Source: Candidatus Binatia bacterium (lineage in GTDB: Bacteria; Desulfobacterota; Binatia; UBA9968; JAJDTQ01). Taken from it: a stretch of 64,000 nt of DNA. The stretch lies in the NCBI GenBank assembly GCA_022824205.1, contig JAJEAI010000171.1, positions 1,193-65,192 of the forward strand, read 5' to 3'. Shown here in pieces: positions 26,868 through 49,761 of this stretch (position 1 is its first letter; each line of letters begins with the position of its first letter). Made by a program: the position numbers and the translations under genes. The notes beneath the pieces are model-generated. The model was not told where the DNA came from. It ran no database searches and was given only the letters and a program-made list of their open reading frames with translations.

Positions 26868-27658
26868 CGTGGGTTTCCGAGACCATGGAGGTGGATGGCG
26901 TCAAGCTCGGGGTGCGCCGGCGCGGAGAGGGCGCCCCGGTCGTAATCCTCTACGGCGACCAACTCGAAACGCCGGTCCCGCCGTTCGACGACGCGCTGGC
27001 CGCGGGTATCCAGGCCGTGGTGCCGTCCCTGCCCGGCGTGAACCGGTCGGAGCTGCCCGGCTGGGTCGACACCATGGAAGACCTGGCCTTCCTGGGGCTG
27101 GACCTGCTCGAGGGCCTGGACGCCGGTCCGGTGGATGTCATCGGCCACGGCTTCGGCGGCTGGGTGGCCGCCGAGATGGCGGTGCGCTCACACCAGCAGA
27201 TCCGGCGGCTGGCGCTGGTGGATTCCGTGGGCATCAAGGTGTCGGCTCCGACCGTGCGCGACGTGCAGGACGTCTATGTCTATACCGTCCAGGAAGTCGC
27301 CGAGCTGGCGTGGCACGATCCGGCGGCCGCCCAGGTGCTCCGGTGGCCGGGCATGGACGGCGTGGAGGGCGATGAACTGCTCACGCTGCTGCGCAACCGC
27401 CAGTCGGTGCTGAAGTTCGCCTGGCGCCCGTTCATGTACAACCCCAAGCTCATGCGGCGGCTCGCCCGGATACGGGTCCCCGTCCACCTGTTCTGGGGCG
27501 AGAGCGACCGGGTAGTGACCCCGGACTACGGCCGCGCCCTCCAGCAGGCCATTCCCGGCGCCGGCTTCACCGCGATACCCAAGGCCGGCCACTACCCGCA
27601 GTGGGAACAGCCCAAGGCCCTGGCCCGGGCGGTGACAAAGTTCCTGGAGAGTTCCTGA
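26864..27658 (+). CDS. Alpha/beta-fold hydrolase, second copy (ATGA overlap with upstream)
   Basis: ...VIGHGFGGWVAAEMA... GXGXG variant, 264 aa. Confidence 0.75.
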   Translation: MTWVSETMEVDGVKLGVRRRGEGAPVVILYGDQLETPVPPFDDALAAGIQAVVPSLPGVNRSELPGWVDTMEDLAFLGLDLLEGLDAGPVDVIGHGFGGWVAAEMAVRSHQQIRRLALVDSVGIKVSAPTVRDVQDVYVYTVQEVAELAWHDPAAAQVLRWPGMDGVEGDELLTLLRNRQSVLKFAWRPFMYNPKLMRRLARIRVPVHLFWGESDRVVTPDYGRALQQAIPGAGFTAIPKAGHYPQWEQPKALARAVTKFLESS

Positions 27659-27785
27659 TTGCGAACGGAAGGGAACTGGACGGGAACCCGCCGCCAGTGT
27701 CGCCATTGCCGTTCGTCCTGAGCGTAGTGGAGCGCAAGCGGAACGAAGTCGAAGGACCCCATTCCCCATAGAGGAGGACCAGGAA

Positions 27786-28907
27786 ATGCTGGCCTACCAT
27801 TTCACCGAGATGCCTTATCCTTTCCTGCCCGACGACGCGGAGGAAACCTACGGGGCCATGCGCGTGACCCTGCCCAGCCGCTACTGCGATCCCAAGATCG
27901 CCCACGATCTCTACAACCGCTACCTCGACGAGTACGAGTACGCCGACGAGCTGGGCCTGGAGATCATGCTCAACGAGCACCACGCCACCGCCACCTGCAT
28001 GGCCGCCAACGTCTCCATCACCGCCGGCACCCTGGTGCGCCGCACCAAGCGCGCCAAGATCCTGGTGCTGGGCTTCCCGCTGGCGCACCGGAGCCCCATC
28101 CAGGTGGCCGAGGACGCCGCCATGATCGACGTCATCTCCGGCGGCCGCCTCATCGCCGGCTTCGTTCGCGGCGTGGGAACCGAGATCCATCCCGCCAACA
28201 CCAACCCCTCCGACACCCGGGAACGCATGCAGGAGGCCCACGACCTCATCATCAAGGCATGGAAGACCCAGGACGTGTTCAACTGGGAGGGCAAGCACTA
28301 CCACTACCGCTACGTGAACCCATGGCCGCGCCCCTACCAGCAGCCCCATCCCCCCATCTGGATCACCGGCAGCCAGCCGGCGGCGGTACCCTGGGTGGCC
28401 GACCACCACTACACCCTGGCCACCGTCCTGACCTCCTACGAACAGACCGAAGCCCTCTTCACCGCCTACCGCAAGCGCTGCGAGGAGATGAACTACCCCG
28501 AGCCCGGCACCGACAGGTTCGCCTACTGCGCCCTCACCTTCACCGGCGAAACCGACAAGAAGGCGGAGGAGGGCGGCCGCAAGCTCCTCTGGTACCTCAA
28601 CAAGCGCCGCCCCGTGGGCTTCTTCGCCCCGCCGGGCTTCGTGCCGCCCCAAGGCCTCACCCGCTTCTTCGACCCCAAGGGCATGGCCCGTTACAACCGC
28701 ACCTACGAAGACCTCATCGACCAGGGCGTCATCATCGCCGGAACGCCGAAGAAGGTCATCGAGAAGGTGAAGTACTTGCATGACCGTTGCGGCGTGGGGC
28801 ACCTGCTGATGATGAACCAGGCGGGGTTCATGACCCACGAGGAGACCAAGCGGAGCATGGAGTTGTTTGCGACGGAGGTTTATCCGGAGTTGCGGACGTG
28901 GCAATGA
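27786..28907 (+). CDS. LLM-class (luciferase-like) flavin-dependent oxidoreductase
   Basis: 373 aa TIM-barrel luciferase-like signature. Confidence 0.85.
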   Translation: MLAYHFTEMPYPFLPDDAEETYGAMRVTLPSRYCDPKIAHDLYNRYLDEYEYADELGLEIMLNEHHATATCMAANVSITAGTLVRRTKRAKILVLGFPLAHRSPIQVAEDAAMIDVISGGRLIAGFVRGVGTEIHPANTNPSDTRERMQEAHDLIIKAWKTQDVFNWEGKHYHYRYVNPWPRPYQQPHPPIWITGSQPAAVPWVADHHYTLATVLTSYEQTEALFTAYRKRCEEMNYPEPGTDRFAYCALTFTGETDKKAEEGGRKLLWYLNKRRPVGFFAPPGFVPPQGLTRFFDPKGMARYNRTYEDLIDQGVIIAGTPKKVIEKVKYLHDRCGVGHLLMMNQAGFMTHEETKRSMELFATEVYPELRTWQ

Positions 28908-28957
28908 GCCGCAGCCAAGCCCGTTAGTCGCTGGATTTTGCTGGAGTGATTCAATAG

Positions 28958-29869
28958 ATGCGACTAATACACCCGATCTATCTCGATATACCGATGCTCG
29001 TGTCATTCGCGGCGGCAATCGAGGGTGGCCTGTCATTCGGAACCCAACTGACACGAGAGGAATCCAGTTCCACCCTGGCGACCGCGGAAGGCGGGGCGAA
29101 ATTTGGTCTGAGCAGTCTGTTCGGCCAATTTCTCGATCTGTCGGCCGATATCGATGCGAAGGGTACGCACGAGGGTATGGAACGATCTGTGGAGAAGAGT
29201 TCACGATCTCACACGGAGGCTTCTGTCGCGATTCTACTCTATGACAGGTTGCGCAACGACTCTGGTTACATTGTCGATCTCGATATCCTAGACGACGCCA
29301 AGAATGTAGAACCTGGAGCACTGGTCGAACTCGCCGGCACTGTCGAAAAGAACGCCATCGACGCCATGATTGACTACATAGATGCGGTGAATATCCTGGC
29401 CAGTTTGGGATCGGATGAGCCACGAAATCCTCAGGGTTCAACGAGTGGGAAACGTCGCGGTTCAGCCAGTGTCAGGAACAGACAGGAGAGCGAGGGTCCA
29501 CTGGAGCACATCCGAGATTCACTCGACAAAGACCGTAAGCGGACACCGATTTCCAATGTGCTGCTTCGATGCACGGTGCCGTCCAACGTCACAGGGGTCG
29601 TAACGTTGCGTACGGAGAATCTTCGAGACCTCACCCTGAGCGAGCTCCATAAGAACAGCGTACGCGTCCTTGGCAAGGTGACCAGGGTCATCGATCGAGG
29701 TGAGGGCATGAGCTCTTTCGAGAATTACGGAATGGCACTGATGCAACCGGAGAAACTACAGACTCTTCTGCGTGGTCTGTGTGAAACTGAGGAGATTACA
29801 CTCGACCTCAGCGAGGTGCAGGTGCAAGGCCCAGCGCTTCAGATATTGCCTTTGATGATATTTGTCTGA
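28958..29869 (+). CDS. Hypothetical protein (303 aa), low-GC, no family recognised
   Basis: Local GC clearly below the genome average; starts 50 bp after the LLM gene. Confidence 0.5.
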   Translation: MRLIHPIYLDIPMLVSFAAAIEGGLSFGTQLTREESSSTLATAEGGAKFGLSSLFGQFLDLSADIDAKGTHEGMERSVEKSSRSHTEASVAILLYDRLRNDSGYIVDLDILDDAKNVEPGALVELAGTVEKNAIDAMIDYIDAVNILASLGSDEPRNPQGSTSGKRRGSASVRNRQESEGPLEHIRDSLDKDRKRTPISNVLLRCTVPSNVTGVVTLRTENLRDLTLSELHKNSVRVLGKVTRVIDRGEGMSSFENYGMALMQPEKLQTLLRGLCETEEITLDLSEVQVQGPALQILPLMIFV

Positions 29870-29875
29870 AAGCCG

Positions 29876-30464
29876 TCACGCTCCGGACTGACGATTCACC
29901 TCGACCTCCACGTTCCGGATCCTTTCCATCAACGCATCGAACCGCGGTGCCTCGTCGCGAATGATGCTGGCGGTCCGCATCGCCTCGTAGTCCGATTCGA
30001 GAAGGACGAGTTGGTCTTCGTCGGGAACGAGCCTCAGCCGGCCGTCCAGGCAATGATTGTAGTTGGCGTAGGTGGCGTTGAAGAAAACCGTCTTATGACG
30101 GACGACATCCTCGAAGATAACGCGGTCGGTGAGGGCCGCTCGGCTGGCGTTGTGGTGGGCGAGGCACGCCAAGTCGAACCAGTGCCGAGATATCCGTTCC
30201 GGGTTCTGCGAAAGCCTGCGCCTGTGGCATTCGACATGGATGAGGGTGGCTGAAACGGTCGATGATTCCGTAGACCTTCGAAAGGGATGTGCCTCCCTTG
30301 AAGGCCATCGGGTGAAGATCCGGTATGGAGAAGAGTATCTGTAGAACCCAACAAATCCAGATGTCCTTCTCCAAGATGACCGCCGGCCGCCCTGACCGGA
30401 CGGCAATGGTCTCAAGGATGTCTCTCTGGTCTCGGGCATTCAACGAGAGGAAGGCTTCAGCCAT
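29876..30464 (-). pseudogene. AbiEii/AbiGii-family nucleotidyltransferase toxin, frameshifted
   Basis: N-terminal ORF (30093-30464): ...RPAVILEKDIWICWVLQILF...FKGGTSLSKVYGIIDRFS.... C-terminal part in another frame (29876-30439): ...HWFDLACLAHH.... Confidence 0.65.
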
Positions 30465-31065
30465 GGGCGGTGTCCTGGCCGGGGGCGTTGAGTGCCATCG
30501 CCATCCACGCGGGAACGTCGGCCGACCGTAGCTTCTCGAACTCCGCCGGGCTCATGGCAGACGCGATCGTGGCGACAGTCTCCGGTGTCACGTTGTCCTT
30601 GCCGAGATACCAGAGGGCGGAGAGTGCCAAGCCCGCCATCTCGCCGGCGAATTGAAGCCTCCGACTGTTCGACGTGTGGATCATCTTGACCGTGATGTTG
30701 CCGATGTGGATCGGGCGGCTGGACGCGCTGGTATGGAACACGGGCGCGCTAGGCACCTGGGTGCTGAGCCCGAACCGCCGCGCCGCTTCCGCGCCATGAA
30801 TTTGGACGGTTTCGCCATTGTGTTTGGCGATGGCTTGAACCACGTCGAAGACGCTGGGGACGACATTGCCAACGAAACGGTTCTTGCGCGGGCGAACGAA
30901 TACGCCCCGGGAGAGCCGCTCGAGTTCCCCCTCGTGGACGATTCGTGAAAGGGCACGGTCGACGGCTCCCCGCCGTCCGCAGTTGGCAAAGCGCGATGTT
31001 GTAAAGGGCTTGCCCGTGGGCAGGCTGCGTATACGGTTTCGAATGGCCTCCGCAGTGGACATCAT
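30457..31065 (-). CDS. AbiEi-family antitoxin / transcriptional regulator
   Basis: MMSTAEAIRNRIRSLPTGKPFTTSRFANCGRRGAVDRALSRIVHEGELERLSRGVFVRP is an AbiEi_4-like N-terminus. 8-bp overlap with the AbiEii start. Confidence 0.65.
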   Translation of the reverse strand: MMSTAEAIRNRIRSLPTGKPFTTSRFANCGRRGAVDRALSRIVHEGELERLSRGVFVRPRKNRFVGNVVPSVFDVVQAIAKHNGETVQIHGAEAARRFGLSTQVPSAPVFHTSASSRPIHIGNITVKMIHTSNSRRLQFAGEMAGLALSALWYLGKDNVTPETVATIASAMSPAEFEKLRSADVPAWMAMALNAPGQDTAHG

Positions 31066-31523
31066 AGGACTCCAGCTTGTCTTAAAATACAGTGGTTTTT
31101 CGGACAAATCAAGAGCCTCGGAGAGGGGTGCTGTGCAAGAGCCTGTGTCAGCAAGGGAGAGGGTACTCCAGTGGGTTGACCGAGGCGCACAACGGGTAAA
31201 CGCCAGGATCAGTCTCGATGATTTCGAGCCCCTCCCGAGTTCAATCAACCCCGTTCGTCGGTGATAAGTTCGTAGCTGGTACTGCGCCCGCGGAGATTAT
31301 GGGCACCATTCTCCGCAAACCTCCCTCATCAGGATGTTGTTGCACCAATTCTGGAGACTGCGGCGAAGGGCTGTCGATGTCCGGCCGCTGATTGGAAGTA
31401 CGGGTCCCATGGTCTGACTTTGCCCTAAGGAGAGTCATCGGAGAACATTTTTCAGAGATCTAAGCATATGTTAGGATTATTCATATTCAATAGCTAGTTT
31501 TGCAGGACTTAGGAGCAGTTCTC

Positions 31524-33086
31524 ATGTCCTCTAATAAATTTAGCAGCAGCACTCACCTCCCGAATCATTTTTCAGGCCCCATAACCGTTTTTCAGGAGCG
31601 CCGGCTGTCAGTGCCGGCTACCCCAGCCGGTTATGCCGCACTCATCGGAGCCTACGGTCTGCGGGTACCGGTGCCGCGTACCCTGAGCGCCACGGGGGAA
31701 CGGCACAGGATCATTGAAGAAGGCGGCTGGCGCATCTATTCGCCGCGTCATGCGCCGAAACCCAGCCTGGAGGGCCACCTGACCTTCGCCCTCAAGCACG
31801 AGGGGCTCGACCTCTTGGTCCTCAAGCGCCTGTTTGCCGCCACGGGTCCGGGACCCGTCGAGAATCTGGTCAGGGTTAAGCCGACGGGCGCCTACGCTCG
31901 ACGCGTTTGGTTTCTCTACGAGTGGCTGACCGGACACCGGCTTGACTTGCCCGACGCCGAACGCGGGGCGTACGCTTCGGTCGTCGATCCGGGCCGCCAG
32001 TATGCCGCCCGCCCCGAGACCTCCAGGCGGCATCGGGTCAAGAACAACCTGCCGGGTACGCCGGCATTCTGTCCGCTGGTGTTTCGCACCGAAACCCTGG
32101 AACGTTTTGCGGCCATGGAGTTGCAGGCGCGGGCGCGGGAGGTCGTGGACGCGGTCCCGAAAGACCTGTTGGCGCGTACCGCGGCGTTTCTGCTGCTGAA
32201 GGATTCCAGGTCCAGCTTCGCCATTGAAGGCGAGCATCCGCCCCAGGACCGTATTCAGCGGTGGGGCCGGGCCGTAGGCGAGGCCGGACGCCGGCCGATC
32301 GATCTTGACGAGCTGTTGCGCCTGCAACGCATCGTCATCGGCGATGCCCGCTTTGTACAGCTCGGACTGCGCACGGAAGGCGGCTTTGTCGGTCAACGGG
32401 ATCGCGAGTCGGGGGCGCCGATCCCCGACCATGTCAGTGCTCGATCCGAGGATCTGGCTAGCCTCGTCGAAGGGCTGATCGCGTTCGACCAAGGGGCCGC
32501 GCAACAGCTCGATCCCGTCGTGGCCGCGTCGGTCATCGGCTTCGGTTTTGTCTACATGCATCCGTTTGAGGACGGCAACGGCCGCATCCACCGTTACCTG
32601 ATCCACCACGCCCTCGCCCGGCGCGGGTTCAACCCGCCCGGCGTGGTGTTCCCGGTATCGGCGGCCGTGCTGGAACGGATCGACGACTATCGCGCCGCAC
32701 TCGAAGACTATTCGCAGCGGTTGCTTCCCGTGGTGGACTGGGAACCCACCGGGAACGGCAATGTACGGGTGCTCAACGATACCGGTGATTGTTACCGTTT
32801 CTTCGACGCCACGCCACAGACCGAGTTTCTATACGGGTGCGTGCAGCAGACAGTCGAGCGGGATCTGCCGGAGGAAGCTGCCTTCCTGAAACGCCATGAG
32901 GGGTTTCGTACGGCATTGAGTCTGCTGGTCGACATGCCCGAAAGGGTGTCCGACCTCCTGTTCCGCTGCCTCCACCAGAATGGAGGGAGGTTGTCCCGCC
33001 GCCGCAGGGAACGGGAATTCGCCGCGCTGACCGATAATGAAGTGGAGCGCATCGAAGCGGCCTATCGCGAGAATTTCCAAGCCTGA
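31524..33086 (+). CDS. Fic-family protein (AMPylator-type, HPFxxGNGR motif)
   Basis: ...YMHPFEDGNGRIHRYLIHHAL...; AT-rich promoter and SD aggagcag. Confidence 0.85.
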   Translation: MSSNKFSSSTHLPNHFSGPITVFQERRLSVPATPAGYAALIGAYGLRVPVPRTLSATGERHRIIEEGGWRIYSPRHAPKPSLEGHLTFALKHEGLDLLVLKRLFAATGPGPVENLVRVKPTGAYARRVWFLYEWLTGHRLDLPDAERGAYASVVDPGRQYAARPETSRRHRVKNNLPGTPAFCPLVFRTETLERFAAMELQARAREVVDAVPKDLLARTAAFLLLKDSRSSFAIEGEHPPQDRIQRWGRAVGEAGRRPIDLDELLRLQRIVIGDARFVQLGLRTEGGFVGQRDRESGAPIPDHVSARSEDLASLVEGLIAFDQGAAQQLDPVVAASVIGFGFVYMHPFEDGNGRIHRYLIHHALARRGFNPPGVVFPVSAAVLERIDDYRAALEDYSQRLLPVVDWEPTGNGNVRVLNDTGDCYRFFDATPQTEFLYGCVQQTVERDLPEEAAFLKRHEGFRTALSLLVDMPERVSDLLFRCLHQNGGRLSRRRREREFAALTDNEVERIEAAYRENFQA

Positions 33087-33134
33087 GGCGAGGGCCGGTC
33101 TGTGCTGAGCCGGGTATCCTTCGCCATGTGGCGT

Positions 33135-34175
33135 TCACCCCACCACCGCCCCGAACCCCATCCCGCTCACAACCGCGCCCACGACGGCGAACCCCACGTA
33201 GGCGGCGAACACCTGCCAGCGTACCAGCGACCACACGGCGACCATGGCCGGGACGCAGGTCATGGCGCCGGAGACCATGAAGGCCAGGGCGGCGCCCGCG
33301 CTCATGCCCTGTTCCATGAGGCCGGCGACGAGGGCGGGTGCGGCATAGCCGTTGAGGTAGGCGGGCGTACCCACCAGGGCGCCGATCACGATGGGGCCGG
33401 CACCGGGTCCGCCCACCAGGCTCGCGATGAACGCGGCGGGCACGTAGGTGACGAGCAGGGCCTGGATCAGGTAGGCGAACGCCAGCCACTTGACCAGGAA
33501 GTGCGCGTTCTGCAGCGTTTCGGAACGGAAGGTGGCCGCCCGCACCGGCTCACGCCAGAATCGCCAGACGATCTCGCCCGTCCCGAGGGTGCCGCCACAG
33601 GTGCCGCACCCGCCGGCCGCGTCTTCGCGCAGAGGGGCGGCGAACGCATGGCGCCGGACGAGGAGACGCACGCCGAAACCGCCGAAAAGCCCGATGGCGA
33701 CGGCCGCGGCCGCCTTCCCGAATGCGAAGTCCCAGCCGAGGGCGGCGGCGGTAATCAGCGCGGCGGGAGGGTCGATGACGGGGGAGGACAGCCAGAAGGC
33801 CATGATGGCGGAGAGCGGCGCGCCGATCGCCAGCAGCGCCGCGATGAAGGGGATGACCTCACAGGAGCAGAAGGGGGCGAGCCCGCCGACAAGCGCCGCC
33901 AAGAAGATCATGCGCGTCTCGCGGCCCTCGAAGGCGCGCGCCACGAGGGCCGTGGTTCCCGTCGCCTTGAGATACGCGATGAGCAGGACCGCCACGACGA
34001 TGAAGGGCAGCGTTCCCGCGAATGCCACCGACGCGATGCGCAGGATGTCCGGCAGGCTGGTGGTGTCGAGCGCCGCTACGGCGAGCGGGATCGCCAGCAT
34101 GAGCCCCCAGGCCGACGCCATGCCCCGGAACCCCACGCGCAGCCCGTTGAATCCGTTCACGACCAGTTCCGTCAA
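33135..34175 (-). CDS. Predicted permease (DUF318/ArsP-like, CxxC-containing)
   Basis: About 8 TM helices with a central ...GGCGTCGGTLG.... Confidence 0.7.
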   Translation of the reverse strand: MTELVVNGFNGLRVGFRGMASAWGLMLAIPLAVAALDTTSLPDILRIASVAFAGTLPFIVVAVLLIAYLKATGTTALVARAFEGRETRMIFLAALVGGLAPFCSCEVIPFIAALLAIGAPLSAIMAFWLSSPVIDPPAALITAAALGWDFAFGKAAAAVAIGLFGGFGVRLLVRRHAFAAPLREDAAGGCGTCGGTLGTGEIVWRFWREPVRAATFRSETLQNAHFLVKWLAFAYLIQALLVTYVPAAFIASLVGGPGAGPIVIGALVGTPAYLNGYAAPALVAGLMEQGMSAGAALAFMVSGAMTCVPAMVAVWSLVRWQVFAAYVGFAVVGAVVSGMGFGAVVG

Positions 34176-34235
34176 TGCGGTTTCCTCGTGAAAGCACCGT
34201 GCATGGCATTGCCTTGGCGCAACTGTAGTGGCGCG

Positions 34236-34523
34236 CTATGCGGCAGCGATCCGTTTGACCTTGAGGGTCCGCTCCAAGTGGCGGGACCTCGCAAGGTCGA
34301 AGGCCAACTGCATGCCTAGCCATGTCTCGGGAGTGGAACCGAATGCCTTGGATAAGCGATAGGCCATGTCGATCGAGATGGACGCTTTCTCATTGACCAA
34401 GTTGGATAGCGTCTGGCGCCCGACCCCGAGCCACCTTGCGCCATCGGTGACCGACAGTCCCAGAGGCTTCAAGCAGTCTTCGCGCACGATGGCGCCGGGA
34501 TGTACGCGGTTTTTCATCGTCAT
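34236..34523 (-). CDS. higA: HigA-family antitoxin (XRE HTH), orphan
   Basis: ...VHPGAIVREDCLKPLGLSVTDGARWLGVGRQTLSNLVNEKASISIDMAYRLSKAFG.... No HigB-sized ORF fits in the 120-nt upstream gap. Confidence 0.8.
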   Translation of the reverse strand: MTMKNRVHPGAIVREDCLKPLGLSVTDGARWLGVGRQTLSNLVNEKASISIDMAYRLSKAFGSTPETWLGMQLAFDLARSRHLERTLKVKRIAAA

Positions 34524-34643
34524 TGAGAGCCTCCGAATGGTAGTCCAGTTAATCGACGTCCACGGCGTGCCCGCCAGCCCGAAGTCGCCGCCCTTGGCGA
34601 GGGAGGGGAAGACGGCGTTGAACCCTGCTTCGTTGCCCGTCCC

Positions 34644-37600
34644 TCAATGTCGCAGCCTCTGGTCGATTTCCGCTTCGTCGTCTTGCCGTAGCGCCTCCCG
34701 GTCGTAGTCGGCCGCGATATTCTCCAGCATACTCCCCACGTAGGGGTAGTGAGGGCTCCGCTGTCTGGCCCAGCTTCGATACTCCTTCGCAAGGTCGCGT
34801 TCCTGCTCCCCTCCCTCCCCGATGGCGCGCGAGACCACGCCGCGTCCATTGTGGATGCCGATGCTGAATCCTGAACCGATATCCGGGGATCCAATCTGTT
34901 CCATCGCTTCGCATACTGCAAGACAAGGCTTGATGCCGTCGTTATCGGCCGGAGCCCTCGACAAAATCTGACCGATATAGTGATCTCCGATTTTCACGCG
35001 GCCATACTCCGCGCATAGTCGCCGCGCCTCGGCTATCCACTGAGACAACACCTCCACATCAATGTCGCCTCCTTCCCCGATACCCGGAACAAGGCTGATC
35101 CGTTCAAGAAGCCCATAAGCGGCGGCAGTCAGTGCGGCCCTTTTCTCGGTGTCTTCGGTTTGCCATTCAGGAGGATCCTGTCCTCCGTCGTCACGTTTGA
35201 ATACAAGTGCCAGGACTTGAACAAAGCCAAAAGGAGATTCGGAGAGCCACTGCTCTAGGTTGGGAATCCCGTGCTCACTGTATTCCAACGTTTGGATATA
35301 CATAAATTCCAATCGTACCATCTCGTCTCGGCTGACGTCGCCGCGGCCGTTGAGTTCGCTCAATGCCTCTGAGATATAGTGACTCTCAAGCCTATATTGG
35401 TCCGCGGATTCAGTGCCTGCGGTGCCGGCATCGAAGAGCAGACGTTTCAGCCGCAACGACTCGATTTTGGACAACTCCAGGTGCGCAACGTGGAATGCAG
35501 CACGGGGACGTTTCACGTCCAGTAGGCGATCGATGAGCTCAATCAGTTCCGCCTCGTCGTAACGGTTCCATTCCGGGACGACCGCCCGCCAATAGTGATC
35601 TTGGACCTCCGCGTCGTACCGGTCGAGCAGGCGCCACGTGCGTCGCCCTAACGGAGCGCAACGGTATAGTCGGGCGATCTGAGCGGTGTCAGCGTCCACG
35701 GCGTCAGCCGTAAGGAGAGTGCCGCGCGCGTCGTCGCTGGCGGACCAGAGAAACCCCCGAATGCATAACTCGGCCTTCTCCCGCAGATGGTCGGTGACAG
35801 AAAGGCACTGCCTCAGAAAATCAACTCGCGCATCTTCCTCTGGGATGCAGGATTCCAACCCTGCCCCAACGACACCGGGGGCGCCGGTATCCGACAGTAA
35901 CGCGGTGACGCCCTCGAATCCGCGTGCGGTCCATATCTCCTTCATCGCAGCAGTGCGGAGCCTGCGCGTTGTCTCCGCGTCCTTCTCGTAGTCGCGTTCT
36001 TCGTCCTCGATTTCGTCGGAGGAAGGCTCAATCCAGGAATTCGTGAACAGCCAAGCATGCCGGACCACCGGATCCCGTGGTTCCAGCCGATCGTATGCCA
36101 CGCGCGCCCGGTCTACCGCCGTACCTTGCAGGCCGTGCCGACGACCGCGTCGGGTAAACGCGAGCCGGCGAAGCCGCTCTCGAAGATCGGCTTTGGCCCT
36201 GTCGTCCGTTTCCGAGTCCGCCCATGTATCGATCAAGTCCCAAACCGTGTTCTGGCCTTCGTCGGGCAATTCCTGAATTCGCTCCAGGAGATCTCCAAGC
36301 GTCCGTTGGTCATGCTTCGGCCATTCGAGGGCGAGCGCGAGTGCCTTGCGCCTGAACTCATGGAATTGTCCCGCCGTTACGTTAGCGCTCGGCGAGTCGT
36401 CCCGCCAGCGCGGACGGTAGCTGGGCAGCGCCATTTGGGGGCCGGTATCCAACTGTGCGACACAAACTTGCCAGCCGATATCCGGAAACCGCTTCGTCAA
36501 CGTCTTAAGGGCCGCTACCCGTTCCGCGAGCGAAGCGGATGTCTGCGGTAACCACGACCGGTAGAGCGCGGCAAGGCTGGCAGAGGGTTTGTTTGCCCAG
36601 TTGTCGGTGATCGTGATTGTCGACAGCCGCGCGAGTATCAAGCTCACGCGCCCGAGATGATTCCAGGCGAGACAGTCCAAGGCCCACAATAGTCCCGTTC
36701 GCAGGCATCGACCGAAAGGGCCGCTTTCGGCGGGCTTGAGCAGGCCGAAGACGGTTGGCTCCGGCTCTCGCAAATCGGTTTCGATCAGCTTCAGAAACGT
36801 GTCCGGAGCGGCCTCGGCATAGTTTGGAAGATCGTCCTGGTGCGAAAGCAGCTTGTCAATTGTCAGCGGCGTGAGCAGCCGTTGGATGATAGAGGAAACC
36901 CGAGCGTCGAGATCGACACCCAGCCGGTTCCGGAACAGCGTGTCGCCGTGGACCGAGAGGAGCACCAGCGTTTCGCGGATGCCCACTCGCAGTGCGGTGG
37001 AGTGATCGCGTACCTTGCCATGCACGTTGGCGAGCCATCTCTCGTCTTCCGGCAATTCCAGCGCGGGATCGGTTTCCGAAAGCACTCGTTCCGCTACTGA
37101 GAACAAATTGTCGAGATCCGATTCGGTCACGAATCTGGCAATCCCGAACAGGGAGTCGATCCGTGAGACCACTCCCCGATATTCCCCTGTCGACCATAGG
37201 GGTGAGTCTTCGAGAGCCAACAACTCCATGACGCCGGATTCCATGTCGTTGGCGTCGCCCCCCCAGCCGAGTCGCCGGACAATTTCGCAGTCGGCTGGAG
37301 AGGTCTTACGCCAAGCACCAACCAGCGCCGCCGGCAGCAACTTCCGCGCCGTCTGAGCGTCCTCCGCCCAGGCAGGGCTACGGACCGCCGGGCTCGTGGA
37401 TAGCCGTCGGCGCAGGACGGTCGGTGATCGACCCGATTCCCGGGCGAGCAGGTCAATCTTGTCATTGGGTAGTTCCATCGATTCCAGGGCGTCCGAGAAG
37501 TCTTTCCAACCCGGAAGCCCGAGCCTGATGTCGGAATTGGCGTTTACATCGTTACCGGGCCGGACAATGACGCAGTGACAACGCCGGTGGAGATCCCCGA

Positions 37601-38720
37601 TATGCGTTTCGACTTGGTCGTTGTGAACGATTGCCATGCGCGGGGCGGCATTCGATTCATGAAACCGTCGCACGGCTTCAGGTGTGTCGAACACGAGCGC
37701 GCCGGTGCCCGGCTCGTCTGTTTCAGACTTGGCCTCGCCGACAAGACAACACAGGAAAGCAAGCGCCTCATCGCGAGAGTCGGCAGCCACGATGAAAGGT
37801 CGCATCGGCGGTTCGCCCAGCCAACGCCGGAACTCGGCAGAGAAATCCCGGGTCGCTGCATTAAACAGAGCAGGTGAAAGCACCGGGTCGCAGATTTCGG
37901 CCCAATCGGACCAGCATCGTTCGAGCGAGCGATAGCCACTATCGTAGTTGTCGAGACGTTCAGCGAACCAGATTTGCACCGGCGCAGACTGCTCAAGCCA
38001 TTGCTCCAGATCATCCGCATCATGGGCGTGAACATCCTTCCAGTCACCGAGGGCCGCCTTTTCGTCCCGCCATGTTTCTTTCCCCGGCCAGTTGCGCGGT
38101 GTCACGAAGACGAACGTCATGTCGCGACGTTCCTGTGGTGGAACCGACTTCACACGAGCGTCGTAGTCGTGCTGCGCCTTGCGTTTGGGGTCTTGGTTGC
38201 AACCGAACTCCCAGCCGGACTTGCCTTCCGGTATCCATGGCGTCGGCGTCTTGGCCTGTACGACACCGTCCCATCCACGCCGTTCGGCATTGCCGAAGGC
38301 GGGGAAGTCGACATGGGTGAGGTCGCGCCCGGTGGAGTGAATCAGCCGCCGCAGCAGCGCTGGAAGTTCTTGCCGCGCATTGATCTGGTTCGCCCAGCGG
38401 TCTATTTCCCCGGCCCTGACTGAGGCGAGATCCGGCGCGTGCCGCCCAGCGACCACTGGTCGCCGCATCGCATCCCCCTGGCGGTCGTATCGTGTCTGGA
38501 AGTCCAGCAGAGCCTCGCGGTCCGCTCCGAAGGCACGCTCCAATCGCAACGCCATCTCCTGTGACAGCGCGGCTTTGCCGTTCAGGAAGTTAGACAACGC
38601 CGGTCGTCCTATCCCAAGCAATGTGGCGGCCTTGGTGACCGTCATGCCCTCCGGGATCACATGTCGCCTGACATATACGCCGGGATGGATCGGCCTCTGT
38701 TTTGCCCCATGTGGGATCAT
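34644..38720 (-). CDS. Large (1358 aa) protein with N-terminal HigA-type XRE HTH domain; remainder uncharacterised
   Basis: N-terminus ...IHPGVYVRRHVIPEGMTVTKAATLLGIGRPALSNFLNGKAALSQEMALRLERAFG.... No P-loop, nuclease or peptidase motifs found by eye. Confidence 0.7.
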   Translation of the reverse strand: MIPHGAKQRPIHPGVYVRRHVIPEGMTVTKAATLLGIGRPALSNFLNGKAALSQEMALRLERAFGADREALLDFQTRYDRQGDAMRRPVVAGRHAPDLASVRAGEIDRWANQINARQELPALLRRLIHSTGRDLTHVDFPAFGNAERRGWDGVVQAKTPTPWIPEGKSGWEFGCNQDPKRKAQHDYDARVKSVPPQERRDMTFVFVTPRNWPGKETWRDEKAALGDWKDVHAHDADDLEQWLEQSAPVQIWFAERLDNYDSGYRSLERCWSDWAEICDPVLSPALFNAATRDFSAEFRRWLGEPPMRPFIVAADSRDEALAFLCCLVGEAKSETDEPGTGALVFDTPEAVRRFHESNAAPRMAIVHNDQVETHIGDLHRRCHCVIVRPGNDVNANSDIRLGLPGWKDFSDALESMELPNDKIDLLARESGRSPTVLRRRLSTSPAVRSPAWAEDAQTARKLLPAALVGAWRKTSPADCEIVRRLGWGGDANDMESGVMELLALEDSPLWSTGEYRGVVSRIDSLFGIARFVTESDLDNLFSVAERVLSETDPALELPEDERWLANVHGKVRDHSTALRVGIRETLVLLSVHGDTLFRNRLGVDLDARVSSIIQRLLTPLTIDKLLSHQDDLPNYAEAAPDTFLKLIETDLREPEPTVFGLLKPAESGPFGRCLRTGLLWALDCLAWNHLGRVSLILARLSTITITDNWANKPSASLAALYRSWLPQTSASLAERVAALKTLTKRFPDIGWQVCVAQLDTGPQMALPSYRPRWRDDSPSANVTAGQFHEFRRKALALALEWPKHDQRTLGDLLERIQELPDEGQNTVWDLIDTWADSETDDRAKADLRERLRRLAFTRRGRRHGLQGTAVDRARVAYDRLEPRDPVVRHAWLFTNSWIEPSSDEIEDEERDYEKDAETTRRLRTAAMKEIWTARGFEGVTALLSDTGAPGVVGAGLESCIPEEDARVDFLRQCLSVTDHLREKAELCIRGFLWSASDDARGTLLTADAVDADTAQIARLYRCAPLGRRTWRLLDRYDAEVQDHYWRAVVPEWNRYDEAELIELIDRLLDVKRPRAAFHVAHLELSKIESLRLKRLLFDAGTAGTESADQYRLESHYISEALSELNGRGDVSRDEMVRLEFMYIQTLEYSEHGIPNLEQWLSESPFGFVQVLALVFKRDDGGQDPPEWQTEDTEKRAALTAAAYGLLERISLVPGIGEGGDIDVEVLSQWIAEARRLCAEYGRVKIGDHYIGQILSRAPADNDGIKPCLAVCEAMEQIGSPDIGSGFSIGIHNGRGVVSRAIGEGGEQERDLAKEYRSWARQRSPHYPYVGSMLENIAADYDREALRQDDEAEIDQRLRH

Positions 38721-38889
38721 GGCTCAGACTCCTTGCAAACCGTGTGTTCACGGGTTATTGTACTCCGCAACGCTACACAATACAACACTCAACGCTAACC
38801 CTGTACTAAAGAGACTGTCAGCCAGTGTATTGTCGGCGAGCAAGACTGAGTTGGAGGGAACCGTTCAAGCGAAGGAGGAGCGGAAAAAC

Positions 38890-39201
38890 ATGAGGGTTGT
38901 CATCGATTGCAACGTCCTGGTTTCGGCAGCTCGGTCTGGAGGAGTTTGTGGCAAGATCATTGTCGAGGCGATACGTGACCATGAGGTCGTCATTGCCAAG
39001 CCCATTGTAGAGGAATACGACGCGATTGCCGGTCGACTCGCGGTCTTCGGTCTCAATGACCCCGATGATGAAGTCTATCTGGCAACCGCGGTGGCTGGCG
39101 GCGCTGTTCTCATCACCGGCAACAGGCGGGATTTCGTGAAACCGCGGTACGGGCCGGTCGAGATCATCTCTCCTCGTGCATTTCTGGAGCGACCGGAATG
39201 A
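38890..39201 (+). CDS. PIN-domain protein (putative TA toxin), no adjacent antitoxin
   Basis: MRVVIDCNVLVSAARSGG..., 103 aa. Confidence 0.7.
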   Translation: MRVVIDCNVLVSAARSGGVCGKIIVEAIRDHEVVIAKPIVEEYDAIAGRLAVFGLNDPDDEVYLATAVAGGAVLITGNRRDFVKPRYGPVEIISPRAFLERPE

Positions 39202-39268
39202 GAAATGACAATGTGCAACAGGCTGAGATCTGGCGCGTCAGGTCCCGTGAGCAATCAACCTGACTGCG

Positions 39269-39598
39269 TTACGAGCCTCCCTTGCTACGCCGAGGCGCTA
39301 GACCGCCTTCCCGCCTACCGCCCCGTTCCCTACGAAGCCGGGTGATGTCGGCGATAACGTCTTCCATGATCTCGTCCTCGGAGCGACCGGCGTCCTCGGG
39401 CGAGAGTTCAATTCGGGTGAGAATGGAAGCAACTTGGTCGGCGGCCGCGTTACGGTCCACCACTTCCTTGGGACGAAAAAGGATGCCGTCTCCAACCACG
39501 GTTGCCTCCAAGAGGTCGCCCTCATGCAGATCGAGCCCTCTGCGCAGTTTGGCCGGAATGGTGACTTGGAACTTCGGCTTCACGGTGACTAGAGACAT
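39269..39598 (-). CDS. AbrB/MazE/SpoVT-family DNA-binding protein (antitoxin-like), convergent with the PIN gene
   Basis: MSLVTVKPKFQVTIPAKLRRGLDLHEGDLLE.... Confidence 0.65.
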   Translation of the reverse strand: MSLVTVKPKFQVTIPAKLRRGLDLHEGDLLEATVVGDGILFRPKEVVDRNAAADQVASILTRIELSPEDAGRSEDEIMEDVIADITRLRRERGGRREGGLAPRRSKGGS

Positions 39599-39703
39599 GG
39601 TAAGCCTCGCGTAGGAAAGTAGTAAAGTTGTCCTATCACGGGGTGCGTATATACGCAATATCGGACCGCCCGACACGTGGTCACGGCTCGCCCTCTGACT
39701 TGG

Positions 39704-40744
39704 CTAGGAGTCAGGCACGAGCACCGGCTTGAGAGCCTCCCCGTCCCGGATGAGCTGAAATCCGCGGGTTGCTTCGGAGAGCGGCAGGACGTGGCTTCGG
39801 ACCGGGGCGAGATCGACGGCGCCGGCCGCGAGCAGTTCGGTGGCGCGCTGCCAGGTCTGCCAGATGAGCCGGCCGTGGATGTTGTGCAGCACCGGGCACT
39901 TGAGCAGCCAGTAGGTGAAGTCCACGGGGATGGCCGCCGCCGGCGCGCCCACCAGCCGGAAGTCGCCGCCCTTGGCGAGGCAGGCGAAGACGGCGTTGAA
40001 GCCGGCTTCGGTGCCCGACAGTTCCACGCCGACGTCCGCGCCCGCTCCGCCCGTCATGTCGCCCACCACGCTCGCCAGGTCCTCGTTCCCGGGGTCCACC
40101 GCGCGGTCCGCGCCCATGGTCTCGGCCGCCCGCAGCCGCACCGGGTTGATGTCGCAGGCGATGACCCTTCCAGCGCCCAAAGCGCGCGCCGCCGCCACCG
40201 CCATGAGCCCGATGGGGCCGCAGCCGTTCACCAGCACGGACAGGCCGGACACCCCAACGCCCGCGAGACAGGCATGAACGGCGATGCCGAAGGGCTCCAG
40301 CATGGCCGCGGTCTCGTGCGGAAGGCCCGGCGGGTTCACCCATGCGATGGACGCGGGCACCGTCAGGTACTCGGCGAACGCGCCGTCGATGTCGATGCCG
40401 GGGTAGCGGGTCTTCTCGCAAAGATGGGCGCGTCCGAGCCGGCAGGCCCGGCAGCGTCCGCAAAAGATGTGGCTCTCGAGGCTGACCCGATCGCCCACGG
40501 CGAGGCCCACCTCGACCCCCGGCTCCACGGCCTCCACCGTGCCCGAGACCTCATGGCCGAGGACCCGCGGCAGCACCATCCGGCGCGCCATGCGCGGCGC
40601 CCAGTTGTAGATCTGCATGTCGGTGCCGCAGATGCCGGCGGCGCCGACCCGGATCAGTATCTCACCGGAACCGGGCTCCCGCGGCTCCGTCTCCCGGACC
40701 GCGATGCCGCCTGCCTCGGGCGCGATCTTCTGAAGGCTCAGCAA
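39704..40744 (-). CDS. Zn-dependent alcohol dehydrogenase (MDR family)
   Basis: GICGTDM..GHE...C..C..C, 346 aa. Confidence 0.85.
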   Translation of the reverse strand: MLSLQKIAPEAGGIAVRETEPREPGSGEILIRVGAAGICGTDMQIYNWAPRMARRMVLPRVLGHEVSGTVEAVEPGVEVGLAVGDRVSLESHIFCGRCRACRLGRAHLCEKTRYPGIDIDGAFAEYLTVPASIAWVNPPGLPHETAAMLEPFGIAVHACLAGVGVSGLSVLVNGCGPIGLMAVAAARALGAGRVIACDINPVRLRAAETMGADRAVDPGNEDLASVVGDMTGGAGADVGVELSGTEAGFNAVFACLAKGGDFRLVGAPAAAIPVDFTYWLLKCPVLHNIHGRLIWQTWQRATELLAAGAVDLAPVRSHVLPLSEATRGFQLIRDGEALKPVLVPDS

Positions 40745-40762
40745 GGGGATCTCTACAGGTCT

Positions 40763-41269
40763 CTACAGGTGATAGATGTCCACCGGCCCTTCGAGCCGGT
40801 CGTCGATGAAGACGATCTTCTTGCGCGCGATCCTGAGCGCGCCGTCGATCCGCCGGAACGCGAAGTCGTAGCGGCTGCCGCGGGTCTGTGCCCCCTTCTT
40901 GCCGTAGACGTGCACGATGCAGTTGGCGGTGGCCTCGACCGCGTTCCCCTGCGCGCGCTCCACCAGCACGTTGCCGATGACGTGCACCGTGCGGTCGAGC
41001 GGAAGCGAAGCCCAGGACTGGCGCGACCCGATGCGGAAAACGCGGTCTTCGAGCCGGCCGCGGCCCTTGAGATAGAGCAGGTTGAGCTGGGTCTCGGGAT
41101 CGCTGGTGGTCTCCTCTTCGCTGGCCCAGGCCGGAGCCCAGTACACGGCGTCCTCGGCATAGAGGTCGAGCCACTCCTCCCAGCGGCGCCGGTCCAGCAG
41201 CATGGCCTCGCGGCTGATCAGCGCCGCCACCTCGCGTTCCAGAGCGGCGTCGATGCCGTTCGCGCTCAT
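40763..41269 (-). CDS. Aromatic-ring-hydroxylating dioxygenase beta subunit
   Basis: SnoaL-like small subunit, 168 aa. The ATGA overlaps the alpha-subunit stop. Confidence 0.8.
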   Translation of the reverse strand: MSANGIDAALEREVAALISREAMLLDRRRWEEWLDLYAEDAVYWAPAWASEEETTSDPETQLNLLYLKGRGRLEDRVFRIGSRQSWASLPLDRTVHVIGNVLVERAQGNAVEATANCIVHVYGKKGAQTRGSRYDFAFRRIDGALRIARKKIVFIDDRLEGPVDIYHL

Positions 41270-42666
41270 GCGCCGGCCGCTCCGTTCTCCGACGGCCTCG
41301 GCGCGCCGCCCGCTCCGTACTCCAGCCGCTCCAGCCACGTGCGGTAGAAGCCGTGGAACATGCCCTCGTGCTCCCAGTCCGGGCAGGACGCCGCCGCCTC
41401 GAAACCCAGTTCGCGGGCGTCCCGGTCGGGGCCGGCCACCATGACGTCCATGCCGCGGGTCATGTCGTTCCACTGGCTTGGCGGTCCCAGGGAGCCGTCC
41501 TGGATGGCTTCGAGGGCGGCGGCATCGTCCGACGTCGCCATCCCGGCCGTCAGGTAGAAGTCCTCGAACTTCCTGAGACGCGCGGCCCGTGCCGTGTCGC
41601 TCTCTCCCTTGGGCGCGATGCAGTAGACCGTGACCTCGGTCAATCGGGGCGACACCGGCTTCACGAACCGGATCTGCGTCGACGGGTTGTCCATCAGCAT
41701 CACGTTGGGAAAGAGGTAGAGGTTGCGGCCGCGGTTGAGTATCCACTCCACCTCTGCCGGCTCGAGACTCTCTACGAGCCACGCCCGCGCTTCGTAGATC
41801 GGACGGACATCCGGCGTGGTGTGCATCGCCCACAACCCCATGTGCCCGTTGCCCAGGTCGTAGGTGCCGCTGGGCACCTTGCCCTTGATGCGCCCGGACT
41901 CGGTCCGGCGCATGCCGGCGGTGGTGTCCCGGGCGTCGCGCTGGGCCACGGTGGCGGCGAAGACGCTGTGGAGGGTGGTCACGTGGTAGCCGTCGACGCT
42001 GTTCTCGGCCTGCAACTTCCAGTTGCCGTGGACCACGTAGGTGGAGCAGCCGGGCACCACCTCCAGCCCGTCCCGTCCCTGATCGGCCAGCAGGTCGATC
42101 CAGCGCGCCGCCGCCCCCAGATGGTCCCGGAGCGGGGGCACGTCGCTCCGCAGGCTCCCGAACACGAACCCCTTGTAGGAGTCGAGGGCGCCGATCCTCT
42201 GCAGGTTGAAGCGCTCGCGCGCGCCTTCCGAAACCGGGTAGCCCAACTCTTCGTTCTTGATCTTGACGCAGCGTCCACCGCGGTCGTACACCCAGCCGTG
42301 GAAGCGGCAGGTCAGCACGTTGGCGCTACCCTGCTTGAGGGGGGTCAGCACCGCGCCCCGATGGGAGCAGACATTGATGAAGCAGCCCAGCGATCCGTCG
42401 GTCTGGCGCATCACGAAAACCGCCTGGCGGCCGATTTCCGTCGACCAATAGTCGCCCGGCCTCTCCACCTGGCTTTCGTGGCAGAGAAACACCCAGCCGC
42501 CCTCGAAGATGCGCTCGATCTCCGCCTGAAAGACCGCATCGTCGGTGTAGACCGCCCGGTCGACGCGAAAGACCCCCTCGTCGACCCGGTCATCCACCAG
42601 GTGGCGGAAGCCGTCCCGTTCCGCCCCACGGTTCATCTCATGGCCCGTTCGTTCGTTCCGCATCAT
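41266..42666 (-). CDS. Rieske non-haem-iron aromatic-ring-hydroxylating dioxygenase alpha subunit
   Basis: CSHRG...CRFHGW Rieske motif plus catalytic domain. Start chosen at MMRNER... Confidence 0.85.
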   Translation of the reverse strand: MMRNERTGHEMNRGAERDGFRHLVDDRVDEGVFRVDRAVYTDDAVFQAEIERIFEGGWVFLCHESQVERPGDYWSTEIGRQAVFVMRQTDGSLGCFINVCSHRGAVLTPLKQGSANVLTCRFHGWVYDRGGRCVKIKNEELGYPVSEGARERFNLQRIGALDSYKGFVFGSLRSDVPPLRDHLGAAARWIDLLADQGRDGLEVVPGCSTYVVHGNWKLQAENSVDGYHVTTLHSVFAATVAQRDARDTTAGMRRTESGRIKGKVPSGTYDLGNGHMGLWAMHTTPDVRPIYEARAWLVESLEPAEVEWILNRGRNLYLFPNVMLMDNPSTQIRFVKPVSPRLTEVTVYCIAPKGESDTARAARLRKFEDFYLTAGMATSDDAAALEAIQDGSLGPPSQWNDMTRGMDVMVAGPDRDARELGFEAAASCPDWEHEGMFHGFYRTWLERLEYGAGGAPRPSENGAAGA

Positions 42667-42866
42667 TGCCTTCTTCACCGTATGGCCGCCGTCTCGGTGC
42701 ACAACTCCACGAATTGCAGTAAACTGCCCGGAACGGTGTCCGTCGTGGTCCGACGACACGCTTCTCCTTCGGTGAAAACTACAGGAAGTTGGTCGCACGG
42801 ATCAAGGACGGATGGCGCCCGCGAACGGTGCGTTAGCGAATCGACCAAGCTGGAATTCAACCACGA

Positions 42867-49642: not shown

Positions 49643-49761
49643 CAGACGTGGGGGGGCTCGGCGAGGACGATTGGAGGCGTGCTGAAACACACGGGCAGCT
49701 TTGAGTGACGGGCGACGGAGGAGCCGATAACGCCGAAGTTGTGGGGTTCGTCGCACCCAAT

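Follow-up and report, generated by a model that had tools for sequence, protein, structure and literature searches.

Within a 64-kb window of a Candidatus Binatia bacterium genome, to which all positions below refer, the genes for a luciferase-like monooxygenase (LLM) and a zinc alcohol dehydrogenase (ADH) are parted by a stretch that a preliminary description of the sequence had delimited as 28908-39703 and read as a toxin-antitoxin/defence island inserted into a coherent catabolic gene cluster. We built a gene map of 27.8-42.7 kb from a listing of open reading frames (ORFs), G+C values at third codon positions (GC3), and hidden Markov model (HMM) scans with Pfam (2025), NCBIfam 20, and PADLOC 2.0; the gene calls of the public contig agree with this map (Table 1). 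Between the two enzyme genes, now refined to 28912-39703, lie genes for a DUF6414 protein, an AbiE pair, a Fic-domain protein, a permease of ArsP_1 type (ArsP), an orphan HigA, a protein of 1358 residues with an N-terminal helix-turn-helix (HTH) domain, hereafter the giant protein, a short PIN protein, and an AbrB/MazE-type protein. The ORF listing and HMM scans recovered every gene named earlier in its place and added ArsP, which had been overlooked.

The region differs in composition from its surroundings, as had been described: G+C is 0.608 versus 0.672 in the left flank and 0.689 in the right flank, and the island genes, ArsP aside, have GC3 values of 0.60-0.78 versus 0.87-0.92 for LLM, ADH, and the Rieske dioxygenase alpha-subunit gene of the ADH operon. 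ArsP is the compositional exception within the island, with host-like values. Core chromosomal genes begin at 49.8 kb and include those for TilS, FtsH, a pterin-binding enzyme (folP-like), a phosphoglucosamine-mutase-like enzyme (glmM-like), and PdxJ. Because three separate assemblies show the same arrangement, the region is not an assembly chimera. A scan with the LLM protein, limited to one genome per species, returned about 25 Candidatus Binatia genomes, and since these carry LLM at 88-99% identity, the window is a segment of a Binatia chromosome.

Table 1. Features at the locus, with positions in the 64-kb window
Feature	Positions	Strand	Basis
LLM (luciferase-like monooxygenase), conserved left anchor	27786-28907	+	Pfam Bac_luciferase E 6.9e-36
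Variable region 1	28912-39703		blastn breakpoints, G+C 0.608
DUF6414 protein, 303 aa	28958-29869	+	Pfam DUF6414 E 1.2e-26, full length
AbiEii toxin pseudogene, two ORFs	29876-30464	-	PADLOC AbiEii, profile 4-72 + 191-303
AbiEi antitoxin/regulator (DUF6088 type), 201 aa, intact	30457-31062	-	PADLOC AbiEi E 6.2e-61; Pfam DUF6088 E 9.4e-28
Fic-domain protein, 520 aa, intact	31524-33086	+	PADLOC PDC-S24 E 2e-201; Pfam Fic E 7.8e-12
ArsP_1-type permease, 346 aa, resident host-like gene	33135-34175	-	Pfam ArsP_1 E 1.9e-38; G+C 0.71, GC3 0.91
Orphan HigA antitoxin-type HTH protein, 95 aa	34236-34523	-	TIGR02607, 95.9 bits vs cutoff 47.7
Zn-ADH gene fragment, 77 bp	34563-34639	-	90% identical to 39941-40017
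Giant protein, 1358 aa, N-terminal HigA-type HTH	34644-38720	-	Sequence searches, AlphaFold, Foldseek, conservation
Divergent giant/PIN spacer, 169 bp	38721-38889		
24-bp palindrome copy, putative HTH operator	38760-38783	-	5 mismatches to family consensus
Short PIN_3-family protein, 103 aa	38890-39201	+	TIGR00305 positions 1-40; PIN_3 positions 88-115
AbrB/MazE-type protein, 109 aa	39269-39598	-	Pfam MazE_antitoxin E 6e-10; TIGR01439 E 1.6e-12
Zn-ADH, right border of region 1	39704-40744	-	Pfam; operon spans 39704-42663
Rieske dioxygenase beta subunit	40763-41269	-	Pfam
Rieske dioxygenase alpha subunit	41266-42663	-	Pfam
Variable region 2	42670-49769		Replaced by 233 bp in L025
Metallophos phosphoesterase	42867-44210		
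AAA_27/SMC-like ATPase, 1188 aa	44207-47773		
Orphan AbiEi_1	47773-48459		PADLOC AbiEi E 2.6e-67
Aminotran_5, TilS, FtsH, conserved right anchor	49770 onward		Conserved in relatives

Comparison of the locus among Binatia genomes

Comparing the locus by tblastn and blastn maps, we found that the left flank, made up of DeoC, two alpha/beta-hydrolase genes, and LLM, is syntenic in all of the roughly 25 relatives. In blastn alignments with 25 related Binatia loci, homology ends at 28908-28917 and restarts at 39702-39711, and both breakpoints coincide with the stop codons of LLM and ADH, which are convergent. The LLM-ADH junction, a comparison that had been proposed with the preliminary description, is an empty site in one relative (L025), where a spacer of only 88 bp links window positions 28911 and 39711; in another (L030) the locus is wholly empty, with LLM joined to the homologue of window position 49782 by 357 bp. 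The same genes in the same order would have spoken for an ancestral region, and only the closest relative, L011, shares the left part: DUF6414, AbiE, Fic, and ArsP are common to both genomes at 94-97% DNA identity, and the DUF6414 gene is common to L011 only. Between ArsP and ADH, L011 carries a small HTH gene (Csa3/HTH_20-like) and a second Fic gene of 434 codons (L011:17021-18776), replacing the HigA, giant, PIN, and AbrB genes of the window. The HigA gene and an intact giant gene are absent at this locus from every species-representative genome scanned.

The cargo to the right of LLM is different in nearly every one of 21 relatives. ArsP occurs at the locus with about 90% DNA identity in L011, L012, L015, L016, L018, and L019, with 86% in L038, and as a remnant in L014. 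AbiE subtypes only 31-50% identical to the window pair are found in L014, L015, and L017, and AbiE together with ArsP in L012 and L016. To the right of LLM, L052 has a type IV methyl-directed restriction enzyme (E 1e-246), while L021 and L024 have Metallophos and AAA_27 genes between LLM and ADH. Our census of this cargo by Pfam and PADLOC, covering 120 ORFs in the 21 genomes and made without a computed background rate of defence genes, counted 17 Fic genes (all matching the PDC-S24 model), 11 AbiEi, 9-11 AbiEii, seven ArsP, and five Metallophos genes, besides single cases of SMODS, HD_assoc, ResIII/DUF3427/PLD, AAA_14/DUF4143, RelE, and one DDE transposase. For L031, the stretch fetched gave no match to the window beyond LLM, ADH-Rieske included. 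The ORFs of 435 and 1382 codons found there (L031:15463-20897) have no PADLOC match and are unlike the window cargo, the longer one adding a further large gene without annotation to the hotspot.

The right-hand neighbour of the region is variable as well. The ADH-Rieske operon is found in about 12 relatives, is absent in L027, L028, L030, and L032, and survives in L029 only as the 5' part of the Rieske alpha-subunit gene (L029:13042-13444). Because it is missing or a remnant in several relatives, the operon is itself accessory cargo of the hotspot. The idea of an interrupted catabolic cluster is correspondingly weak, LLM and ADH being convergent and not co-transcribed. Beyond the operon, variable region 2, with its phosphoesterase, ATPase, and orphan AbiEi_1 genes, is replaced by a short spacer in L025 and absent in L012, L014, L019, and L052. 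Since regions 1 and 2 and the ADH-Rieske operon are all absent in some relatives, the whole of 28.9-49.8 kb is variable. Region 1 consists of at least two sub-sites, LLM-ArsP and ArsP-ADH, parted by the resident ArsP, and the locus as a whole holds three slots between LLM and Aminotran_5/TilS/FtsH: LLM-ArsP, ArsP-ADH, and Rieske-alpha-Aminotran_5. Our reading, to which we give a probability of about 0.8, takes 28912-39703 not as one insertion but as the left two-thirds of an integrase-less hotspot on the chromosome at which defence and toxin-antitoxin genes turn over. Of the island described earlier, the defence/toxin-antitoxin cargo and the inserted state stand, the latter by the empty site, and the single island gives way to a hypervariable site with at least two sub-sites.

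Sites of this kind are known from other bacteria. At the core defence hotspots of Pseudomonas aeruginosa (Johnson et al. 2023, PMC10250203) and the integrase-less defence-island hotspots of Escherichia coli (Hochhauser et al. 2023, PMC10121019), variable defence cargo occupies a fixed site flanked by core genes, and mobility genes are lacking. The Binatia site resembles both in its conserved core flanks, its genome-specific and defence-rich cargo, and its lack of mobility genes. Unlike them, it is made up of three adjacent slots interleaved with ArsP and ADH-Rieske, its cargo is dominated by Fic and AbiE, and its host phylum, Binatota, is known only from metagenome-assembled genomes.

Decay and turnover of the cargo

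PADLOC matched the AbiEi gene, the AbiEii remnant, and the Fic gene, the last by the PDC-S24 model. The AbiEi gene overlaps the start of the AbiEii gene, the operon layout of the type IV AbiE system, from which the window pair differs by its deleted toxin gene. AbiEii had been called frameshifted; DNA alignment with the intact 338-codon gene of the closest relative (L011:12106-13122) reveals a 428-bp internal deletion with its junction at 30251/30252, by which profile positions of about 73-190 are missing and the reading frame is lost. With the toxin gene having lost 428 bp and its frame, AbiE should be unable to work as a system and the pair, judged by its sequence, is dead, with only the antitoxin/regulator kept. 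The Fic protein, by comparison, matches profile positions 4-490 of 497 of PDC-S24, a PADLOC candidate system for which our literature search found no experimental paper, and keeps its active-site motif HPFEDGNGRIHR intact at residue 346 (motif form HPFx[D/E]GNGRxxR). Because this motif is intact, the protein would be predicted to AMPylate or otherwise modify a target protein; it falls far under the equivalog cutoff of SoFic (22 bits vs 550). The DUF6414 protein has no PADLOC match. Its Pfam family includes DolA of the Dodola system, which consists of DolA and the ClpB-like DolB (bioRxiv 10.1101/2024.10.26.620412). The window protein matches DUF6414 over its full length, but no ClpB-like gene lies nearby, and it is not Dodola as defined.

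To the right of ArsP, the small genes are stranded or eroded. The orphan HigA and the giant-protein HTH share 46% identity, and no HigB lies beside HigA: the upstream space of 120 bp contains nothing but the ADH fragment, and the 60 bp downstream reach ArsP. The ADH fragment immediately follows the giant stop codon, derives from the inside of the intact ADH gene (39941-40017), reads EAGFNAVF.LAKGGDF in translation, and is a recombination scar. The PIN gene, divergent from the giant gene, has no antitoxin gene directly upstream on the same strand, and its product aligns only to the ends of the profiles and may be degenerate. The AbrB/MazE-type gene, which lies downstream of ADH on the same strand, is convergent with PIN, so the two do not have the antitoxin-upstream-of-PIN layout of VapBC. 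In L017 a decayed version of this right-hand module survives: of the giant gene, 87 bp at the 3' end are left (91% identity), the PIN gene has lost 136 bp internally, and AbrB is intact and about 90% identical to that of the window. This decayed copy shows that the module is not recent in the lineage and was lost by deletion. Decay in the window is partial: AbiEii, the ADH fragment, and the orphan HigA, PIN, and AbrB genes are decayed or stranded, as expected for the old, decaying island of the preliminary description, whereas the largest genes, Fic and giant, are intact. These two are the intact candidate defence genes of the region.

Mobility functions were absent throughout, in agreement with what had been noted for integrases and att sites. 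The window holds no integrase or transposase in Pfam, NCBIfam, and PADLOC scans and no tRNA gene, its borders show no att-like direct repeats, and the ADH fragment is its sole long repeat. Megablast of 26000-44000 against plasmids gave no match; there was likewise no phage DNA match, and tblastn of the giant protein against phage genomes gave one partial match of 24% identity. For the P. aeruginosa and E. coli hotspots, exchange is usually explained by homologous recombination in the conserved flanks (PMC10250203, PMC10121019). At the Binatia locus, cargo would be gained, exchanged, and deleted within the three slots, most likely through homologous recombination in conserved flanking genes after DNA uptake, and later illegitimate deletions would erode it. 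We infer this mechanism because the breakpoints lie exactly at gene ends, no mobility gene is present, and scars remain.

Several points weigh against a hotspot that works in this way. The recombination mechanism is deduced from its traces, no transfer event having been observed; ArsP, AbrB, and PIN are about as diverged from their relatives as the flanks are; and gain is not fully separable from differential loss, as the remnants in L017 and L029 show deletion to be common. Taken further, the region could be ancestral to the clade, with all differences due to differential loss alone and no insertion, as would fit the host-like composition of ArsP and its identity of about 90% in seven relatives, much as in the flanks, the similarly conserved remnants (about 90%) of the giant and PIN genes in L017, and the Rieske alpha-subunit remnant in L029. 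We regard such a history as quite improbable, since the slots hold unrelated and mutually exclusive cargo (the distant AbiE subtypes, the type IV restriction enzyme, SMODS, and Metallophos with AAA_27 in L021 and L024), the G+C and GC3 of the DUF6414, AbiE, HigA, giant, PIN, and AbrB genes are well under host values, and the closest relatives of the giant protein (at most 80% identical) come from other lineages, with a 60% homologue in Rhodobacteraceae. That the region is the remnant of one integrative mobile element (a prophage, an integrative and conjugative element, or an integrative island) whose integrase was lost is highly improbable, for although giant-family genes elsewhere adjoin integrases, TraU, MobA, and Tn7-like genes and the hotspot ORFs of relatives include one DDE transposase, the window lacks an integrase, a transposase, a tRNA gene, flanking direct repeats, and any phage or plasmid DNA match, and it is a mosaic of modules with differing distributions among relatives and a resident ArsP in the middle.

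Other features of the window bear on its remaining variable parts. In variable region 2, the AAA_27/SMC-like ATPase has weak PADLOC matches to the N-termini of LmuB, PtuA, and mads. G+C reaches its local minimum (0.542) in the 1.3 kb of 48460-49760, for which the public record lists no gene. The minus strand there contains a reading frame of about 300 residues that begins with a hydrophobic helix, and it might encode the missing partner of AbiEi_1 or be another unannotated gene. Two more G+C dips, at 12001-13000 (0.555) and 3001-4500 (about 0.59), may mark other acquired segments.

The giant protein and its family

The giant ORF of the window is intact and of the canonical length of its family. 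Residues of about 8-80 form an HTH of HigA type, as judged by TIGR02607, by PDB HigA and GraA sequences, and by Foldseek (rmsd of about 2 Angstrom). Beyond the HTH, the protein has no match in Pfam, NCBIfam 20, or PADLOC 2.0, even at E<=10 in Pfam scans of five segments, and PDB sequences, whether searched by the single protein, by a 15-sequence profile of residues 96-262, or by a full-length profile of 80 sequences, yielded HigA-type HTH proteins only. An exhaustive search, counting representatives of clusters at 50% identity, found 6,735 at E<=1e-3 and 2,780 at E<=1e-30, the latter nearly all of 1,340-1,380 residues; about 10% of the family lacks the HTH and keeps the other roughly 1,260 residues. 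Word-index matches exceeded 2,486, the top 120 being 55-100% identical and mostly 1,330-1,380 residues long. The family spans Pseudomonadota, Actinomycetota, Bacteroidota, and Binatota, with members in plasmids or chromids of Rhodobacteraceae, Ensifer, Shewanella, Rhizobium, Cupriavidus, Ralstonia, Arthrobacter, and Adhaeribacter, whose annotation goes no further than "HigA family antitoxin" or "HTH regulator". A literature search on DUF6414, PDC-S24, DefensePredictor, and HigA with HEAT found no description of this family, with coverage after 2023 that was not exhaustive and is no proof of absence. Two pairs of family proteins, P0079/P0085 and P0090/P0112, each share one longest-contig size (2,804,115 and 2,367,175 bp, respectively), which suggests that some genomes carry two giant paralogues.

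Sequence searches, AlphaFold models, Foldseek, and conservation together divide the giant protein into the HTH (about 8-80), an alpha/beta domain (about 100-255), a poorly modelled centre (about 296-620), and a HEAT/karyopherin-like solenoid (about 620-1358). Residues 10-80 are a confident HTH, for which Foldseek returns HigA proteins. The alpha/beta part (100-250) has pLDDT values of about 70-95 (exceeding 85 over 160-240 and falling under 50 in one short loop) and the order a-b-b-b-a-b-a-b; its Foldseek match is a phage "restriction endonuclease", with a probability of 1.0 over 148 columns, an rmsd of 4.0, and an E value of only 2e-2. Residues 296-450 are modelled at a pLDDT of 30-57, with weak Foldseek matches to AAA+, Avs4, and RFC proteins. 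The C-terminal 758 residues form an all-alpha solenoid (pLDDT 84) that matches karyopherin/HEAT proteins at E 1e-4. An active NTPase in the central region is not supported: the family lacks a Walker A motif (GxxxxGK[ST]), the candidate loop reading IVAADSxDEALAF and its family consensus IxADSxxEALAFL, and a Foldseek search of the N-terminal half against the PDB placed Avs4, AAA+, and SAMD9 proteins only at probabilities of 0.2-0.5 and rmsd values of 15-27 Angstrom, with HigA dominant.

Conservation sets the alpha/beta domain apart. In an alignment of 254 sequences, with which an alignment of 80 sequences agrees, residues 100-255 are the most conserved part, conservation is lowest at about 900-1150, and the invariant polar residues cluster within 116-245, at R116, R124, T130, D151, S168, E171, K181, D185, T207, K214, D234, D237, E239, and Q240. 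PD-(D/E)xK nucleases have an acidic residue where beta2 begins and a (D/E)xK motif in beta3. The alpha-beta-beta-beta-alpha-beta order of this domain fits their core, but E171 is followed by F-G173, not by x-K. On the modelled topology, D151, E171, and K181, all invariant or almost so, suggest a divergent PD-(D/E)xK nuclease.

A conserved DNA element accompanies the family. Scanning 38 giant-family loci, with up to 8 mismatches counted as a match and shuffled sequences as control, we found a 24-bp palindrome (consensus GTATTGTGTAGCGCTACACAATAC) within about 90 nt upstream of the start codons, often 10-20 nt after a TTGACA. Conserved across phyla, it is present in 34 of the 38 loci versus 0.3% of shuffled controls and absent in L006, L093, L154, and L158. 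The window copy lies in the divergent spacer of the giant and PIN genes, which also holds three of the five TATTGT/ACAATA hexamers of the whole window; a sigma-70 promoter consensus scan of the spacer found none. HigA antitoxins typically autoregulate through a palindromic operator. Because the palindrome is kept across proteins only 33-80% identical, we argue that the giant HTH would bind its own promoter.

The neighbourhoods of giant genes were examined in seven long-contig contexts and in a metagenome scan that added 80 loci, of which 34 gave 122 immediate neighbours. The long contigs hold integrases, type I and type III restriction-modification, a STAND protein, SLFN/AlbA, an SMC-like ATPase, an Mrr-helicase, SIR2, HEPN_AbiU2, GmrSD, BrxL, and a WYL/WCX regulator, and the metagenomic neighbours include restriction-modification, MmeI, PglX, LmuB, AbiE, a TIR effector, nSTAND3, HEPN, TraU, MobA, and ArdC-N. 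In 8 of the 34 loci (L100, L107, L133, L150, L156, L161, L168, and L173), the immediate upstream neighbour is a divergently transcribed Fic gene at a distance of 36-220 bp; a possible ninth is L102, whose contig is near-identical to that of L133 and whose upstream ORF falls outside the Fic cluster. These Fic-giant pairs belong to two giant subclades with different Fic subtypes, and the palindrome sits in their shared spacer. The second Fic protein of L011, described above, is 70% identical to the Fic partner in L133. At the 3' end, an AbiJ_NTD4 gene abuts or overlaps the giant gene (gap of 0 or -45 bp) in three loci (L100:5582-6451, L102:6227-7291, and L107:6752-7429) and may be a downstream operon partner in one subclade. 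By clustering, 109 of the 122 neighbours are singletons and Fic is the sole recurrent partner, apart from AbiJ_NTD4 in the three loci. As about three-quarters of the loci lack a recurrent neighbour, the giant gene is usually autonomous. Plasmids carry giant matches too: of 124 records with a match, 63 are conjugative or mobilizable. At least 80% of the protein is present in just 14 of the records, so that some matches may be to the HTH only; one full-length copy stands at the beginning of the record for plasmid pS19502 of Shewanella baltica.

Possible roles of the giant protein

DSR2 and the Avs proteins of the STAND class are single-protein phage sensors, found in defence islands, that join an N-terminal effector to a large C-terminal helical-repeat sensor, and CapRel is a precedent for an antitoxin-like domain fused to a larger defence protein. 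The giant protein resembles DSR2 and Avs in its conserved N-terminal domain, its variable helical repeats, its encoding by one gene, and its occurrence in defence islands; unlike them, it has no SIR2 domain and no Walker A motif, and it carries a HigA-type HTH with its own putative operator. No sequence similarity to DSR2 or Avs was detected, and the Foldseek match to Avs4 (8dgf) is weak (E 6e-3, probability 0.47). With HigBA it shares the HigA-type HTH and with CapRel the fusion of an antitoxin-like domain to a larger protein, whereas a fused part of about 1,270 residues takes the place of a HigB or RelE-fold toxin.

In a tentative model, the giant protein would be a single-protein sensor-effector defence gene. 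Its HTH would repress its own promoter through the 24-bp palindrome, the domain of residues 100-255, with D151, E171, and K181, would act as a PD-(D/E)xK-like nuclease effector, and the variable C-terminal HEAT-like solenoid would sense a phage or plasmid component. The family as a whole could, at a similarly cautious estimate, be a large unnamed group of single-gene immune or anti-mobile-element sensors composed of the HTH, a divergent PD-(D/E)xK-like effector, a degenerate alpha/beta module lacking a P-loop, and, as the sensor, a variable HEAT-type solenoid of about 750 residues, with a Fic partner in two subclades. Much can be said against this proposal. The nuclease call is a hypothesis from topology, the conserved D/E/K residues, and the one weak Foldseek match; the canonical (D/E)xK lysine position is occupied by glycine, the PDB searches gave no sequence or profile match for the domain, and the central region is poorly modelled. 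The tie to defence genes is one of guilt by association, and the many copies on conjugative plasmids fit anti-defence, exclusion, or addiction too.

Two other roles compete with a sensor-effector. The giant protein may not itself be an effector but a large regulator of HTH type, or an antitoxin-like sensor, in control of a neighbouring toxin, PIN in the window and Fic elsewhere; its HigA-type N-terminal domain, the palindrome in a spacer shared with a divergent neighbour, and the placing there of Fic in the eight metagenomic loci (with L102 added from contig similarity) and of the toxin-type PIN gene in the window would all agree with this. We find this role doubtful, because most giant loci have no recurrent neighbour, the HTH-less tenth of the family keeps the rest of the protein, and conservation peaks in the domain of residues 100-255 with its invariant acidic and basic residues, as in an enzyme. 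Service to mobile elements, by anti-defence, exclusion of competitors, or addiction, in place of anti-phage defence of the host, is unlikely in our estimate: the plasmid records, the pS19502 copy, and TraU and MobA/MobL among the neighbours point that way, but the copies are mostly on long contigs (0.7-6 Mb in four) beside restriction-modification, BREX, SIR2, GmrSD, and HEPN genes, the family is nearly absent from phage genomes, and plasmids commonly carry defence genes themselves.

Considered as an island, the Binatia locus is a textbook defence hotspot, of value mainly because such a site is here described for the first time in Binatia, a phylum without cultured members. It also shows that seemingly coherent metabolic neighbours, here LLM and ADH-Rieske, can be hotspot cargo themselves. 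The hotspot type is already known, and the new element is the giant family, for which Pfam (2025), NCBIfam 20, and PADLOC 2.0 have no model and whose at least 6,700 clusters, under "HigA antitoxin" labels, leave roughly 1,270 residues of the protein unexplained. If the giant gene is indeed a defence gene, a widespread single-protein system would be added to those known, with a conserved operator as a regulatory handle.

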